This document shows positions 29,543 through 33,373 of a DNA stretch of 64,000 nucleotides, piece by piece. The DNA comes from an uncultured Clostridia bacterium (GTDB lineage: Bacteria; Bacillota; Clostridia; TANB77; UBA1234), in the NCBI GenBank assembly GCA_944393265.1, contig CALXZO010000009.1:1103-65102 (forward strand), written 5' to 3'. The stretch's first letter is position 1. Each line of letters opens with the position of its first letter. The translations under genes and the position numbers were made by a program. The notes under the pieces are model-generated. The model worked only from the letters and a program-made list of their open reading frames with translations. It searched no databases and had not been told where the DNA came from.

Positions 29543-29579
29543 AAAAGTAAAATCGTCGCACCAGACGAAAATATTTATA

Positions 29580-29607
29580 AATCAACTGTGAAAGGTTGAT
29601 TTTTTTG
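29580..29607 (+). terminator. terminator-like hairpin after the tRNA
   Basis: aatcaactgtgaaaggttgatt stem followed by tttttt. Confidence 0.4.
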
Positions 29608-29642
29608 TCGCCTTTATATTGAAAATGAAGGGATGGTGCGGT

Positions 29643-29924
29643 ATGATTAATATCGTAAAGAAGAAAAACAAGATAAGCAGAGATATACTCTCTAAAATTG
29701 AATGGGCTTGCTGTTTGAATTCTATAAAACTTGATAATCAAATGATATTAGAAGATTATTTAAGAATTATAGAACATGCAAATTTGGCGTATGTAGAACC
29801 ACATAGAGCAATCATTAAGAATAAGCTATACTTATTTTTTAATGAACATGACTATTTCTATGTGGGAGATTTAAGGACTAAATATCTTTTATCTAATTTA
29901 CAAGAATATATAACAAGGCATTAA
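29643..29924 (+). CDS. hypothetical protein (~93 aa)
   Basis: ORF only; no family recognised. Confidence 0.3.
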   Translation: MINIVKKKNKISRDILSKIEWACCLNSIKLDNQMILEDYLRIIEHANLAYVEPHRAIIKNKLYLFFNEHDYFYVGDLRTKYLLSNLQEYITRH

Positions 29925-30256
29925 TTTTAGAGTTAAAAAATGTTTGTAAATAAAATATAAAACTTTAAAAGTGCCAATGGCTATGTATATAAGCTAGAGG
30001 CACTTTATTTAATGCCTTCCCATTCAAGTTGAAGAGAGGATTAAAAATTATGAATGCAGAAGAAAAAGAAAGATTAGTATTTGAATTATTTTATAATCTT
30101 TATTGTATTATTTGGAGAAAGCAATAAAATATAAAACAAAAAATATTTTTTGAGGGACAGATATATAAAGCATATAGTTTAATCATTGACATTATTAAAA
30201 AAGCAAATAAGAAAATTTTAATAATTGATAATTACATTGATTATAGTATATTAAAA

Positions 30257-30523
30257 ATGCTTACTAAAAAGAAGAAAAAGGTTGAAGTTGTAATATTAAC
30301 TTTAGATAAAAGTAATATAGAAAAAATGGATATACAAAAATTAAATAAAGAATATCCAATATTAAAAGTTGCTAAAACAAATAAATTTCATGATAGGTTT
30401 ATTGTAATAGATAAAAAAGAAATGTATCATTTAGGTGCATCAATAAAGGATTTAGGTAAAAAATGTTTTGGAATTAATAAAATAGAAGATTTAGATATTA
30501 TAGATAAAATTATAAATTTATAA
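30257..30523 (+). pseudogene. possible C-terminal fragment of a RhuM-family-like protein (N-terminus missing)
   Basis: HDRFIVIDKKEMYHLGASIKDLGKKCFG resembles, from memory, the C-terminal region of RhuM/ORF6C-type proteins; the frame is open ~40 codons upstream of the Met with no start. Confidence 0.3.
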
Positions 30524-30605
30524 GCAAAAATTTAAAATTTTGTACAAAAATATAATTTATATGATACTATATTTATAGTTAATAAAAATAAGAAGTGAGA
30601 AAGAT

Positions 30606-31702
30606 ATGATAAAAGAAATAATAAAATATGGAGAAGCTGAAGTTACATATAAAAGTAAACAATTATTAGCTGAAAAGCCAAAATTATATAATCTGTTTTG
30701 GGAGACTACACTTAGATGTAATGCAAAATGTAAACATTGTGGAAGTAGAGCGGGAGAAAACATTAAGCTAGAAGATGAGTTAACTACTGAAGAAATTAAA
30801 AACGCATTAAAGAGTATTGCTAATAAATATGATGCTAGTAAAATTTTATTAAATATAACTGGTGGTGAACCATTAGTAAGACAAGACCTTTTCAATGTAA
30901 CGGACTTTGCTAATAAGCTAGGATATCATTGGGGAATGACAACAAATGCTATCTTAATAAATGAAGACAATATTCAAAAAATGAAAAATACTGGTATGTC
31001 AACTATTTCTATAAGTTTAGATGGATTAGAAAAATCACATGATGAATTTAGAGGAGTTAAAGGTTCATATTTAAAAATAATTAAAATATTAAAAAATTAA
31101 AAGAAGCTAAATTTTTAAACTATTTGCAAATAACTACAGTTGTAAGCAAATTAAATATTAAAGAATTAGAAGAAATGTATATTAAAATGAAAGAACTTCA
31201 AATTGATTCGTGGCGAATAGTAAATATGGATCCGATAGGAAGAGCAGAAGATAATAGAGATTTAGCATTAGATAAAGATGATTATAAATACTTGTTAGAA
31301 TTTATAAAGGAAAAAAAGAAAAAATCAAAGTTTGATATAACCTATGGCTGTACTTATTTTGTTGGAATGAAATATGAAAAAGAAGTTAGAAATCATATGT
31401 TCTTTTGTGTAACTGGATTTACAACAGGAAGTATTTTATATAATGGAGATATTTATGTGTGTCCAAGTGTTGAAAGAAGGAAAGAGCTTGTACAAGGCAA
31501 TGTAAGGACTGATGATTTTGTAGAAGTTTGGGAAAATAAATTTAAATGGTTTAGAGATTTAGATAAATTAAAATGTAAAGAATGTGAGAATTGCAAAGAT
31601 TGGAAATATTGTAGAGGCGATTCTTTAGATACATGGGATTTTAATAATAATAAACCTAAGTTATGTTTAAGTAAAATTTTAGAAGAAGACGGAAAAAAAT
31701 GA
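30606..31702 (+). CDS. radical SAM/SPASM-domain protein (peptide/protein-modifying maturase), split by a -1 frame break inside an A6 run at 31091-31096
   Basis: CNAKCKHC (Cx3Cx2C) radical SAM cluster in part 1; SPASM/twitch Cys-rich C-domain (GCTYFVG ... YVCPSVERR ... GNVRTDDFVEVWEN ... CKECENC) in part 2; the frames rejoin as KIIKILK-KLKEAKFLNYLQITTV if the run is A7. Confidence 0.75.
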
Positions 31703-32043
31703 ATAAATTAAAAAAAGTTTTTGCAAGTCTTAGTGTGTTTTTTGGAAGTATGATTTCAAAAGTATTAGCATTTGACCCAGCTATGATGGTAGAAGATAAA
31801 TATGGAGTAATTGACCCAAGAATGTATGAACCACCAAAATATGGTATATTTGAACCAACCATTGGAGAAAAAATTTCAAGGATAGGGAAAATAGCACTTC
31901 CACTAGTATTATTTATTATAGGATTATTTGTTATTTTAAATAAAAAAATAGCTAAAAAAGTAAAGATTATAACAATATCAACATTATTAGCTATTGGAAT
32001 TTTAGGTTGGATAATATTAAATTATATTGCAAATAATTATTAA
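31699..32043 (+). CDS. small secreted/membrane-anchored protein translationally coupled to the radical SAM gene
   Basis: ATGA start-stop overlap; signal-peptide-like N-terminus (MNKLKKVFASLSVFFGSMISKVLA), two C-terminal TM segments. Confidence 0.5.
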   Translation: MNKLKKVFASLSVFFGSMISKVLAFDPAMMVEDKYGVIDPRMYEPPKYGIFEPTIGEKISRIGKIALPLVLFIIGLFVILNKKIAKKVKIITISTLLAIGILGWIILNYIANNY

Positions 32044-32056
32044 AACACAATTATGT

Positions 32057-32212
32057 TTTTTAATTTCATAGGAAAGTAGTCAAAAATTAACAAATTATGT
32101 TACCAAATACTTTCCGTATGAAACAACAAAAATTCCATATTTAAAGTCGAGCTTTGCTCGACATATGAAAATCAAAAAATCTTTGATTTTTTAGATTTTC
32201 ATTTTTGTTCTA
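32057..32212. repeat. ~155-bp structured dispersed repeat, copy D
   Basis: near-identical to copies A-C. Confidence 0.8.
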
Positions 32213-32683
32213 ATTTAATTTAGTATTTACAGTTGATTAATAGAATTATTTTTTTGAGCAAATCGTGGGAGGAACACTATAGAAAATGTATGTTTTTTTC
32301 GCATATAACCACGACAAACGCTTCATTAACGTTTCTGTTTGAACTTTTTTGAACAGATGATATGAAATCAATCAGAAAAACTGGTTGATTTTTTTTGTCT
32401 AAAAAATCAGATAAATTACTGTTTGAAAAAGTAAAGGAACTAATTAGCTAGAATGGATAAAACTAATAAATATTCATAAAAATGTATCTGAAGAAATTAT
32501 ATTAAATTGGCTTATTTGTATGTAAAAAAGGACTGCAGTTTTGCAATCCTTTAAAATTTAGTTGTTAAAAAGTATAGTAACAAATTAAGTTTTATGTTCT
32601 AGCTAGAACTGAATTTGTTTACACGTACAAATTCTTTTGTAGGTAACACCTCAATCTCCGTACATTAGAAAGGAGGTCCTTTT

Positions 32684-32749
32684 ATGAGAAAAAAGCACTT
32701 AACCAATCTGGAAAAGAAAATTAAATCTTATTTCTCATGTGAAGGCTAA
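32684..32749 (+). CDS. possible 21-aa peptide MRKKHLTNLEKKIKSYFSCEG
   Basis: excellent AAAGGAGG RBS 8 nt before the ATG, inside an ~800-bp gene-free AT-rich stretch; no other support. Confidence 0.2.
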   Translation: MRKKHLTNLEKKIKSYFSCEG

Positions 32750-33013
32750 CCTGCTTCTTTTGATTTGCGTAATTATATAACGAATTAAATCTTTGAAAAT
32801 ATAAAAGGGGATAATTACTATATTAAATAAAAAATATTAAGCGGCAATCTAAGATTTTTTAATTTATGGTATCACTAAGAATTAGTTGCCGCTCAATATT
32901 CAAAGATAATTTCTTAAATATATCCGCTTACGTTTCGATAAAGAATAGGTTATACTAATAAAGTTAGTAGCCTTAACAATCATAAAAAATTTCAATTTTA
33001 ATTACCGCTAAAT

Positions 33014-33373
33014 TTATAAACAAGGCTCTTCGTTAGGTTTATTATAGTCTGGTTTTAGTTCGCAATCTACGAATAAATCTTCTACTTTTGTATCTGCCGA
33101 AAAGTCTACTGGAATTTCAACTTTCATTTTTTGAACAATAGTAAATTTACATTCACATTTATCTTTTTCTTTATGACAGGTATCATGCTTCCTCAAAGAT
33201 ATTATTGGATTACCACAACATTCTGTCTTAATTCTTCCAACGCAAACCTTTGGAGTCGTAGTGACAGGAACACAGATTGTCAAAAACTTTTCAATAATAG
33301 AACGGCAATTTTTATCGAAATTTGTATATTCATTTTTTTCGTTTTCAAACATCAAAAAATCCTCCTTTAACAT
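33014..33373 (-). CDS. Cys-rich hypothetical protein (possible spore coat/exosporium-like)
   Basis: CVPVTTTPKVCVGRIKTECCGNP and CECKF Cys clusters; 119 aa; no confident family. Confidence 0.4.
   Translation of the reverse strand: MLKEDFLMFENEKNEYTNFDKNCRSIIEKFLTICVPVTTTPKVCVGRIKTECCGNPIISLRKHDTCHKEKDKCECKFTIVQKMKVEIPVDFSADTKVEDLFVDCELKPDYNKPNEEPCL

Follow-up and report, generated by a model that had tools for sequence, protein, structure and literature searches.

A split radical SAM/SPASM gene and its coupled partner

We analyzed a stretch of 64,000 nucleotides (nt) from an uncultured Clostridia bacterium (GenBank assembly GCA_944393265.1, contig CALXZO010000009.1, positions 1,103 to 65,102 of the forward strand), referred to below as the window, and in particular an islet that begins at the 3′ end of a tRNA-Gly gene (29543–33373). 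Within the islet lies a two-gene module: the gene of a radical S-adenosylmethionine enzyme with a SPASM domain (rSAM/SPASM), split by a frameshift, and directly after it the gene of a protein of 114 amino acids (aa), called the partner here. A preliminary description of the window had pointed out this broken maturase-like gene and its coupling to a small protein with a signal peptide and two transmembrane (TM) helices. Both points were borne out by the frameshift and the ATGA overlap described below, and every feature it listed was recovered at the same position by open reading frame (ORF) listing, ARAGORN, Rfam and domain searches. The parts of the module are as follows.

30606..31100, plus strand: N-terminal fragment of the rSAM/SPASM enzyme, 164 aa; Cx3Cx2C motif at C38/C42/C45; premature TAA; PF04055, E 2.5e-19; TIGR04133 positions 11-155
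31091..31096, plus strand: frameshift site, a run of six A (A6); relatives have A7 (ATA AAA AAA TTA AAA GAA)
31085..31702, plus strand: C-terminal part of the enzyme in the −1 frame (listed ORF 31124-31702, 192 aa); rest of the barrel and SPASM domain; TIGR04133 positions 170-344
31699..32043, plus strand: partner, the predicted substrate, 114 aa; its ATG at 31699 overlaps the rSAM stop codon TGA at 31700-31702 (ATGA)
31798..31818, plus strand: K-Y-G-V-I-D-P, motif 1 of the partner, residues 34-40; predicted modification site
31837..31857, plus strand: K-Y-G-I-F-E-P, motif 2 of the partner, residues 47-53; predicted modification site and the near-invariant copy in the subfamily

Adding one A to the A6 run joined the two enzyme ORFs into a protein of 365 aa that aligned end to end with its homologues; that is, the loss of a single nucleotide splits the gene into products of 164 and 192 aa. 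The restored enzyme was collinear with more than 3,500 homologues, and the 120 matches listed included many full-length proteins of 359–369 aa with 56–90% identity. Its SAM-cluster motif reads C38-x3-C42-x2-C45. The SPASM domain (PF13186, E 4.4e-10; TIGR04085, 33 bits against a cut-off of 27) covers a region with eight cysteines (249, 268, 286, 324, 327, 330, 336, 354), whose pattern includes C268..G281-x4-C286 and C324-x2-C327-x2-C330-x5-C336.

The split did not arise from faulty assembly or sequencing. Three independent metagenome assemblies (L088, L089 and L090), which match window positions 25568–44126 or 32092–44126, were 99.93–99.97% identical to the window (4–13 mismatches), and the two that span the frameshift site, L088 and L089, both carry the A6 allele. 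The exact 164-aa and 192-aa fragments were found on 15–16 contigs, and a V98G variant of the N-terminal fragment retains the same truncation. The restored (A7) protein sequence was absent from a collection of 15 billion proteins. Because the A6 allele recurs in independent assemblies and the fragments occur on so many contigs, we concluded that the deletion is real; A6 is the sole allele seen for the species. With one A lost from the A7 run, translation would cover residues 1–164 and reach neither the remainder of the barrel nor the SPASM domain, a truncation that most likely leaves the module in this genome inactive and decaying.

A second lineage (L175, positions 2797–4309; also L176 and L177) has a differently broken gene. 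The C-terminal rSAM fragment of this lineage (P0410) shares 91% identity with the restored enzyme. The gene is frameshifted near residue 188 and its 5′ end is disrupted, whereas the partner ORF, of 102 aa, is intact. This separate breakage indicates that loss of the enzyme is recurrent.

A further rSAM gene in the window, PflX/PflA-like (39500–40376, minus strand), is also split, here into two overlapping ORFs: an N-terminal part of 150 aa with ..GCNLQCVFCQN.. and a C-terminal part with ..GYVDVYLPDLKYF... The split was also called in assemblies L088–L090, and thus two broken rSAM genes lie within 10 kb.

The A-run could also be read as a programmed −1 frameshift site or a phase-variable homopolymer, from which full-length enzyme would be made at a low or switchable level by a functional module. 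Window positions 31091–31100 (A_AAA_AAU UAA; candidate slippery site AAAAAAUUAA) have the X_XXY_YYZ form in the right register with a 0-frame stop immediately after, and the product of a −1 slip (..KILKNLKEAKF..) is collinear with the relatives. The same allele is kept from strain to strain, the partner ORF has remained intact, and a modest hairpin (−11.9 kcal/mol, z = −1.7) lies about 9 nt 3′ of the site. However, that hairpin is not significant, since 13 of 200 shuffled sequences folded equally well, and all close relatives have a plain A7 in a single uninterrupted ORF that needs no frameshift. Switching was not visible in the records, in which the restored allele's protein does not appear. 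The second lineage is broken at a different, non-slippery site and at its 5′ end; this independent break and the second split rSAM gene of the same genome point to plain gene decay. We therefore give the programmed or switchable reading little credence. Pseudogenization is the better reading, given the non-significant hairpin, the relatives that have no frameshift and the second lineage broken elsewhere, and the slippery-looking heptamer is probably a coincidence of an A-rich gene.

Conservation of the pair and of the xYG motif

The partner gene is translationally coupled to the enzyme gene through the ATGA overlap. In order, its product has an N-terminus resembling a signal peptide (..KVLA|F), a linker that carries two KYG motifs, the conserved sequence TIGEKISRIGK, a first TM helix, a basic loop (NKKIAKKVK) and a second TM helix; the three hydrophobic segments are residues 11–25 (signal-peptide-like) and the TM helices at about 63–82 and 88–111. 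It had no significant match in Pfam, PHROGs or PADLOC. In the first five homologue loci, the rSAM gene is followed immediately by a protein of 99–104 aa that has no Pfam match and aligns with the window's 114-aa protein, whereas the neighborhoods are otherwise unrelated. A common plan emerged from 83 partner homologues: a signal-peptide-like N-terminus (..SKV.A), one to four copies of K-Y-G-[VI]-x-[DE]-P and a near-invariant T[IM]GEKIS.IGK, and then a TM helix, the basic loop (S/N)KKITKKVK and a second TM helix. With the window included (84 sequences), one motif copy was present in 28, two in 54, three in 1 and four in 1. The residue before Tyr-Gly, the X of what we call the xYG motif, is Lys in 136 of 143 motifs of the window's subfamily.

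A scan of one genome per GTDB species returned at least 464 enzyme relatives, and we examined 80 loci of different species. The hosts of the relatives are mostly gut and rumen metagenome-assembled genomes (MAGs) of Clostridia, Bacilli and Erysipelotrichaceae, with a minority in a few Bacteroidales, Patescibacteria and one Methanobacteriaceae bin. Results showed an adjacent partner with an xYG motif in 78 of the 80 loci. Of these, 73 have an ORF with YG[VILP].{0,3}P no more than 1.5 kb from the enzyme, and in another five the partner is recognizable as a homologue with a variant motif (MYAVDP, DYGIQTAYGIE, DYGVY); only in L030 and L084 was no partner with the motif found. Among 79 ORFs picked with a loose form of the motif, 66 are downstream of the enzyme and 76 on the same strand. 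In ORFs farther than 2.5 kb away, which total 247,688 residues, the strict motif was found 20 times, a background at which about 0.01 matches are expected per partner-sized ORF.

Across 149 instances the consensus is Q-x-[V/L/K]-Y-G-[V/I/P]-P, and over the whole clade there is free variation in X (V, L, K, I, M, A, D, E). The motif is found in partners of very different build: proteins with a signal peptide and TM hairpin, as in the window; lipoproteins (L035, L043, L078), with ..LVGC followed by QAMYGVPP..DLYGVPAP; and large soluble proteins of 200–1231 aa (L049, L058, L064 and others) with repeated KYDI.PE.N.PQ.VYG[VI]P. An exhaustive search of 50%-identity representatives also revealed fusions of the motif with the enzyme: in P0223, three VYG motifs lie N-terminal to the rSAM domain, and P0224 (..IYGPP..) and P0227 (..LYGPPP..) have theirs C-terminal to it. 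One further candidate for a natural fusion, P0073 (485 aa), was rejected as a chimeric or truncated call that lacks Cx3Cx2C.

In most related loci, nucleotide similarity to the window was limited to about 30500–32050, which is the two genes plus about 80 nt upstream; intact orthologues of the module include P0001 and L008. No extra conserved gene accompanied the module in the homologue loci compared. The limited similarity and the differing neighbor genes suggest that the module moves as a unit.

These limits bear on the small ORFs that the preliminary description had put forward, next to the coupled membrane protein, as possible precursor peptides: a 21-aa ORF at 32684–32749 and a 25-aa ORF at 30050–30127. 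A consensus AGGAGG stands at a favorable distance ahead of the 21-aa ORF, and each of the two ORFs contains a Cys, as do many SPASM substrates. However, the 21-aa ORF has no YG, was found in same-species contigs only and is absent beside all other copies of the module, and conservation of DNA along with the module stops at about 32050, before this ORF. The 25-aa ORF is an in-frame upstream piece of an ORF6N/RhuM-type (PDC-S05) pseudogene, separated from the rest of that gene by one stop codon. We rejected both, and consider an orphan short ORF as the precursor extremely improbable. The third proposal is strongly supported, as the membrane protein stands beside the enzyme in 78 of 80 loci and carries the family-wide motif.

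Some enzyme relatives (P0209, P0210, P0216, P0226) are about 550–665 aa long and have a C-terminal extension with a JAB/MPN-like H-x-H-P..S.xD signature, which, judging by this signature, could be a built-in peptidase for substrate processing.

Profile hidden Markov model (HMM) searches, a check that the preliminary description had proposed, gave TIGR04133 ('rSAM_w_lipo') as the best NCBIfam family for the restored enzyme, at 303.6 bits over model positions 11–344 of 350. This is below the cut-off of 425 bits, as were all relatives of the clade that we compared with this model (300–330 bits). The next scores were AhbD 168.5, TIGR04053 157.5, NirJ2 150.3, MftC 132.0 and TIGR04103 131.0, all far below their own cut-offs; the PqqE model gave 101 bits. 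A sequence search of the PDB returned the generic SPASM enzymes CteB, Tes, SkfB, MoaA, PqqE and SuiB, and no splicease structure (see below) was among the matches, so that this search did not discriminate between the enzyme types.

TIGR04133 and TIGR04134 are NCBIfam hypothetical equivalogs of Bacteroidales, named 'radical SAM/SPASM protein' and 'radical SAM-associated putative lipoprotein', with no function assigned, and they were not discussed in the literature that we searched. We fetched 80 metagenome loci with relatives of P0270, a bona fide TIGR04133 member (568.9 bits against the cut-off of 425), and inspected eight. Seven of these have an overlapping upstream ORF (152–163 aa) that starts with MKVRF..LLGYGC|SS..DMYGT.VPEYG.P.., and the four upstream ORFs that were scanned pass TIGR04134 at 86–129 bits (cut-off 39.8). 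Bona fide TIGR04134 lipoproteins thus carry the xYG motif. Because it stands there right after the lipobox, the motif logic is common to the curated pair and to the window's clade.

The two pairs are alike in several respects. TIGR04133 is the best-scoring family for the window's enzyme and aligns with it end to end; both pairs consist of two overlapping ORFs with a small exported, membrane-tethered partner; and xYG (in TIGR04134, D-M-Y-G-T.. and E-Y-G-x-P) follows just after the anchor or signal. They differ in that the window's enzyme scores below the TIGR04133 cut-off and its partner has no TIGR04134 match at E ≤ 0.01, nor do the lipoprotein-type partners of the clade. The window's partner is held by a signal peptide and TM hairpin rather than by lipid, is encoded downstream of the enzyme rather than upstream, and lacks the folded domain of about 120 aa; its clade is hosted mainly by gut Clostridia and Bacilli rather than Bacteroidales. 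By profile score and alignment, then, the enzyme's clade is a sister of TIGR04133, and the window's pair belongs to a sister clade of TIGR04133/TIGR04134 with a different predicted anchor. The arrangement had been called unusual and unassigned, which overstates the case, given this sister relation and the fit to published XYG/splicease logic.

The same scores raise another reading, that the rSAM is a small-molecule or cofactor enzyme (an AhbD/NirJ-like tetrapyrrole enzyme, or an anaerobic sulfatase-maturating enzyme, anSME) and that the membrane protein has an accessory role, for instance as an anchor, a subunit of a transporter or an immunity protein. The tetrapyrrole enzymes AhbD, NirJ2, NirJ and AhbC (118–169 bits) make up four of the six best NCBIfam matches behind TIGR04133, the top one among them, and the enzyme lacks an N-terminal extension as large as a RiPP recognition element (RRE; RiPP, a peptide made on the ribosome and modified after translation). 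However, the tetrapyrrole-family scores are far below the cut-offs of 500–650, and no tetrapyrrole genes lie nearby. No anSME model was among the 25 best-scoring families and no sulfatase is present in the neighborhood; a match to pVip was limited to the generic rSAM core, and we likewise rejected a viperin identity. The only constant element in 78 of 80 loci is the short xYG motif, while the partner varies in size, location and anchoring, and the motif is fused to the enzyme itself; an accessory role would preserve the fold or TM part, not a motif of 4–7 residues in a disordered linker. We regard this small-molecule or accessory reading as very improbable. Of the two observations that the preliminary description had named as speaking against a peptide substrate, lack of conservation of the small ORFs was found, whereas by family score the enzyme is neither an anSME nor a cofactor enzyme.

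Possible chemistry at the motif

Taken together, the pairing, the retention of the motif, the fusions and the limits of the conserved module argue that the partner is the enzyme's substrate and that xYG is the site of recognition or modification; with several independent lines in agreement, we hold this to be quite probable. The target residues in the 114-aa protein would probably be Tyr35 and Tyr48.

Some rSAM/SPASM enzymes, the spliceases, excise tyramine at XYG; splice tags of PlpA are PIRP(L/M)YGLPI and AVAAMYGVVFP, and 27 splicease systems have been characterised and 939 predicted, located through YG-rich ORFs beside SPASM enzymes (PMC11414181, PMC10533398, PMC10849128, PMC11626197). MYG and LYG are among the natural splice sites, many of the non-cyanobacterial systems are binary, with enzyme and precursor only, and the products inhibit Ser/Cys proteases (PMC11414181, PMC10533398, PMC10849128, PMC11626197, PMC9811515). 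Like the spliceases PlpX, PcpX, RhaX/RasX and RcsX (PMC11414181, PMC11626197, PMC10533398), the window's enzyme combines rSAM and SPASM domains and lies beside a predicted substrate with X-Y-G sites. X is variable, and the Y-G-hydrophobic-(x)-Pro context is that of the PlpA tags ..LYGLPI and ..MYGVVFP. The binary layout with no Y protein is that of 'type II and later' spliceases, and published splicease examples include protein-sized substrates. Unlike those systems, the window's putative substrate is not a leader-core peptide of NHLP/Nif11 type but a predicted Sec-exported membrane protein; moreover, the enzyme is outside the HMM family of PlpX and some members of its clade are paired with Y-A. 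The Y-G-hydrophobic-Pro context and the free variation of X favor splicease chemistry, and we put tyramine excision by this enzyme at a little short of an even chance.

The pair could instead perform a different radical chemistry on the Tyr of xYG, such as a Tyr-X C-C or C-O cross-link, an MftC-like decarboxylation and cyclization on V/L/K-Tyr, epimerization or hydroxylation. The enzyme's HMM scores against MftC (132 bits) and PqqE (101) put it no farther from these two than from the PlpX family (TIGR04103, 131), and MftC and PqqE also act on a peptide Tyr (for MftC chemistry, see PMC9062424). The Y-A variants are not a known splice site, and the Pro 2–5 residues after Tyr is more conserved in the clade than any requirement described for spliceases. 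However, X-Y-G-hydrophobic-Pro is the exact context of the two PlpA splice tags that have been used in experiments, and an X that varies freely fits a residue that merely becomes the side chain of a β-residue; a cross-link partner, unlike X, would be expected to be conserved. MftC and PqqE are, like the window's enzyme, compact SPASM enzymes that attack a Tyr motif (..GVY in MftA, E..Y in PqqA), but they need a PqqD/RRE partner, small dedicated peptides and multi-gene cofactor operons, none of which is present at the module. We consider one of these other chemistries on the same pair unlikely, though it is the alternative that we take most seriously.

On balance we lean towards the following as the best explanation of the whole: a two-gene module in which the rSAM enzyme modifies Lys-Tyr-Gly motifs in the adjoining exported membrane protein, and which is decaying in this genome. 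In a working copy, the cytoplasmic enzyme would act on Tyr35 and Tyr48 of the nascent or unfolded pre-protein, before export. Sec would then export the N-terminal segment, and the signal peptide would be cut after VLA. The modified linker would come to lie on the outer face of the membrane, tethered by the TM hairpin, with the K-rich loop inside, a placement that agrees with the positive-inside rule. The displayed segment may act as an electrophilic ketoamide, for example as a protease inhibitor. No protease or exporter gene accompanies the module, which fits a protein product rather than a released peptide.

A precedent for such timing is the anSME, a cytoplasmic SPASM enzyme that modifies a short motif in signal-peptide-bearing sulfatases before Sec export. 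By analogy, the window's enzyme would modify a short motif of a signal-peptide protein before export. The targets differ, in that anSME converts the Cys or Ser of C/S-x-P-x-R to formylglycine; as noted above, the anSME model and sulfatases were absent from the best 25 families and from the neighborhood, respectively.

Several points weigh against this explanation. Tyramine excision is proposed from the motif alone, and the enzyme lies outside the PlpX model: TIGR04103 (nif11-class maturase 3), which we equated by inference with PlpX's IPR026482, gave 131 bits against a cut-off of 725 and was the sixth-ranked family, below AhbD, TIGR04053, NirJ2 and MftC. The partners of L017, L019 and L085 have Y-A in place of Y-G, whereas published spliceases use YG. 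At the module we identified no Y-protein, RRE or obvious leader helix. The predicted topology and signal-peptide cleavage come from a hydropathy plot and the AXA rule rather than a dedicated predictor. Lastly, the partner ORF is intact, which may mean that the protein functions without modification or that residual enzyme is made by frameshifting.

A bolder version would have KYG, VYG and LYG turned into α-keto-β-amino acid warheads on small membrane-tethered surface proteins of gut Clostridia and Bacilli, in at least 464 species. In the window's subfamily, the β-lysine ketoamide from KYG would mimic a P1 Lys and, bound to the cell, covalently inhibit trypsin-like proteases of host or phage; the products, ribosomal and Sec-exported, would form a 'spliceoprotein' class rather than diffusible RiPPs, and the homopolymer in the enzyme gene would switch the modification on or off. 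We offer this as speculation and think it decidedly unlikely.

The module is most simply read as a binary system of splicease type whose protein substrate is anchored in the membrane; mining for YG-rich neighbors of SPASM enzymes is already published. What unites a large clade of rSAM/SPASM pairs outside curated models is the xYG motif, which also ties this clade to the TIGR04133/TIGR04134 pair, curated but with no function assigned. Should the splicease chemistry prove true, very common gut anaerobes would make membrane-anchored proteins with ketoamide β-residues, which would be relevant to interactions with host proteases, and the clade would offer compact binary splicing enzymes for protein engineering.

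The islet around the module

The remaining features of the islet and its borders are listed here.

29469..29542, plus strand: tRNA-Gly, anticodon TCC (ARAGORN; Rfam RF00005, 69.5 bits); its 3′ end is the left border of the islet, which runs from 29543
29543..29612, plus strand: flank 3′ of the tRNA with two hairpins, hairpin 1 at 29553-29568
29579-29612, plus strand: terminator-like hairpin AAATCAAC..GGTTGATTTTTTT within that flank, after tRNA-Gly
29619..29924, plus strand: hypothetical ORF; 101 aa with TTG as start codon, 93 aa with the ATG at 29643
30050..30523, plus strand: remnant of an ORF6N/RhuM-type gene, its C-terminal ~45%; in-frame TAA at 30125-30127
32057..32210, plus strand: copy of a 154-nt intergenic repeat, family D1, with hairpins and a T-run
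32229..32400, plus strand: conserved non-coding segment with a terminator-like hairpin (32364-32392) at its end; candidate right border of the islet
32684..32749, plus strand: 21-aa ORF with AGGAGG upstream; judged outside the module
33014..33373, minus strand: Cys-rich protein, 119 aa (112 aa in public assemblies), 10 Cys; judged outside the module

The view of this region as a tRNA-proximal accessory islet was confirmed by its low guanine-cytosine (GC) content and its decayed genes. GC is 20–26% over about 29750–32750 and 32% for the entire window, and the features of a tRNA-integrated island are present: a tRNA 3′ end, deviant GC and decayed cargo (the PDC-S05/RhuM pseudogene and the broken rSAM gene). 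The sequence 3′ of tRNA-Gly (29543–29612) is about 81% identical to DNA directly 3′ of a transfer-messenger RNA (tmRNA) gene in another species (L024), where a counterpart of the islet follows; the preliminary description had suggested looking for the islet in relatives. On the right side, window positions 32325–32400 are homologous to the flank just 3′ of a tRNA-Leu gene in L032, and about 32303–32324 there is a weak, degenerate resemblance to a tRNA 3′ end. These border features, namely the homology to tRNA and tmRNA flanks and the tRNA-end-like stretch, suggest the remains of a tRNA-targeting integrative element. Two results speak against such an element: no integrase-sized ORF was found in 29543–33373, and no second copy of the tRNA-Gly 3′ end (an attachment-site, or att, type of direct repeat) was found at up to 3 mismatches. 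The similar terminator hairpins at 29579–29612 and 32364–32398 have merely about 25 nt in common.

The counterpart in L024 (6576–6926 and 6927–9418; MAG MGYG-HGUT-00421) has the left-end sequence, a shortened middle and the rSAM and partner genes after the tmRNA gene, and the same MAG has a second copy of the module on a separate contig (L019). The conserved non-coding segment (window 32229–32400) recurs across species at L008 1604–1747, L025 9436–9517, L015 357–456 and L032 1537–1661. In L008 and L025 it contains ..AACGCACCA.., which resembles a tRNA 3′ end, directly 3′ of the partner gene. Judging by this resemblance, the segment may be what is left of the att site of an integrative element with the module as its cargo.

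The 154-nt repeat has four copies in the window, all on the plus strand (9834–9987, 11999–12152, 17728–17881 and 32057–32210; 86–100% identical to the reference copy), each with three hairpins and a T-run. It had no Rfam match and was absent from the other species' loci fetched; among those loci, only same-species contigs contained it. It is possibly a species-specific terminator or repetitive extragenic palindromic (REP)-like element, and the copy at 32057–32210 probably serves as the 3′ end of the operon. A second repeat family, of 54 nt (AGCCTATGGCAATAGGCT.. then ..GTATAGACAAAAACTTCGTCC..CATGTCTA), has copies at 3134–3187, 22860–22913 and 28384–28437 (78–100% identical to the reference copy). 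At gathering thresholds, Rfam reported only the tRNA and a distant T-box in the window, and a permissive search of 32000–33600 gave a chance-level Qrr match (E 0.94) as its sole result. The T-box leader (RF00230, 103.6 bits; 40522–40719) is an ordinary one, upstream of an aspartyl-tRNA-synthetase-like gene seen in L088.

Among the other ORFs, the one at 29619–29924 is called as a 93-aa gene in public assemblies, and its 101-aa form had no significant family match in Pfam, PHROGs or PADLOC. The 88-aa ORF at 30257–30523 matches PADLOC PDC-S05 positions 171–298 of 306 (E 4e-47), and in tblastn searches plasmid genes annotated 'RhuM family' or 'ORF6N domain' aligned with the remnant across the TAA at 30125–30127. 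About 800 nt 3′ of the repeat copy contain no convincing gene apart from the 21-aa ORF.

The Cys-rich protein had no significant match in Pfam, PHROGs or PADLOC. It had been presented as part of the arrangement, a placement that we rejected: its homologues adjoin Coat_F and polysaccharide deacetylase genes or other genes in unrelated neighborhoods, and never the module. By its conservation it is nevertheless a real gene, of a family of 51 clusters that have no annotation. In L171 and L172 (4604–5330), a Coat_F (spore-coat) gene immediately precedes the Cys-rich homologue and a polysaccharide deacetylase gene follows it, a position that hints at a spore-coat-related role for this family.

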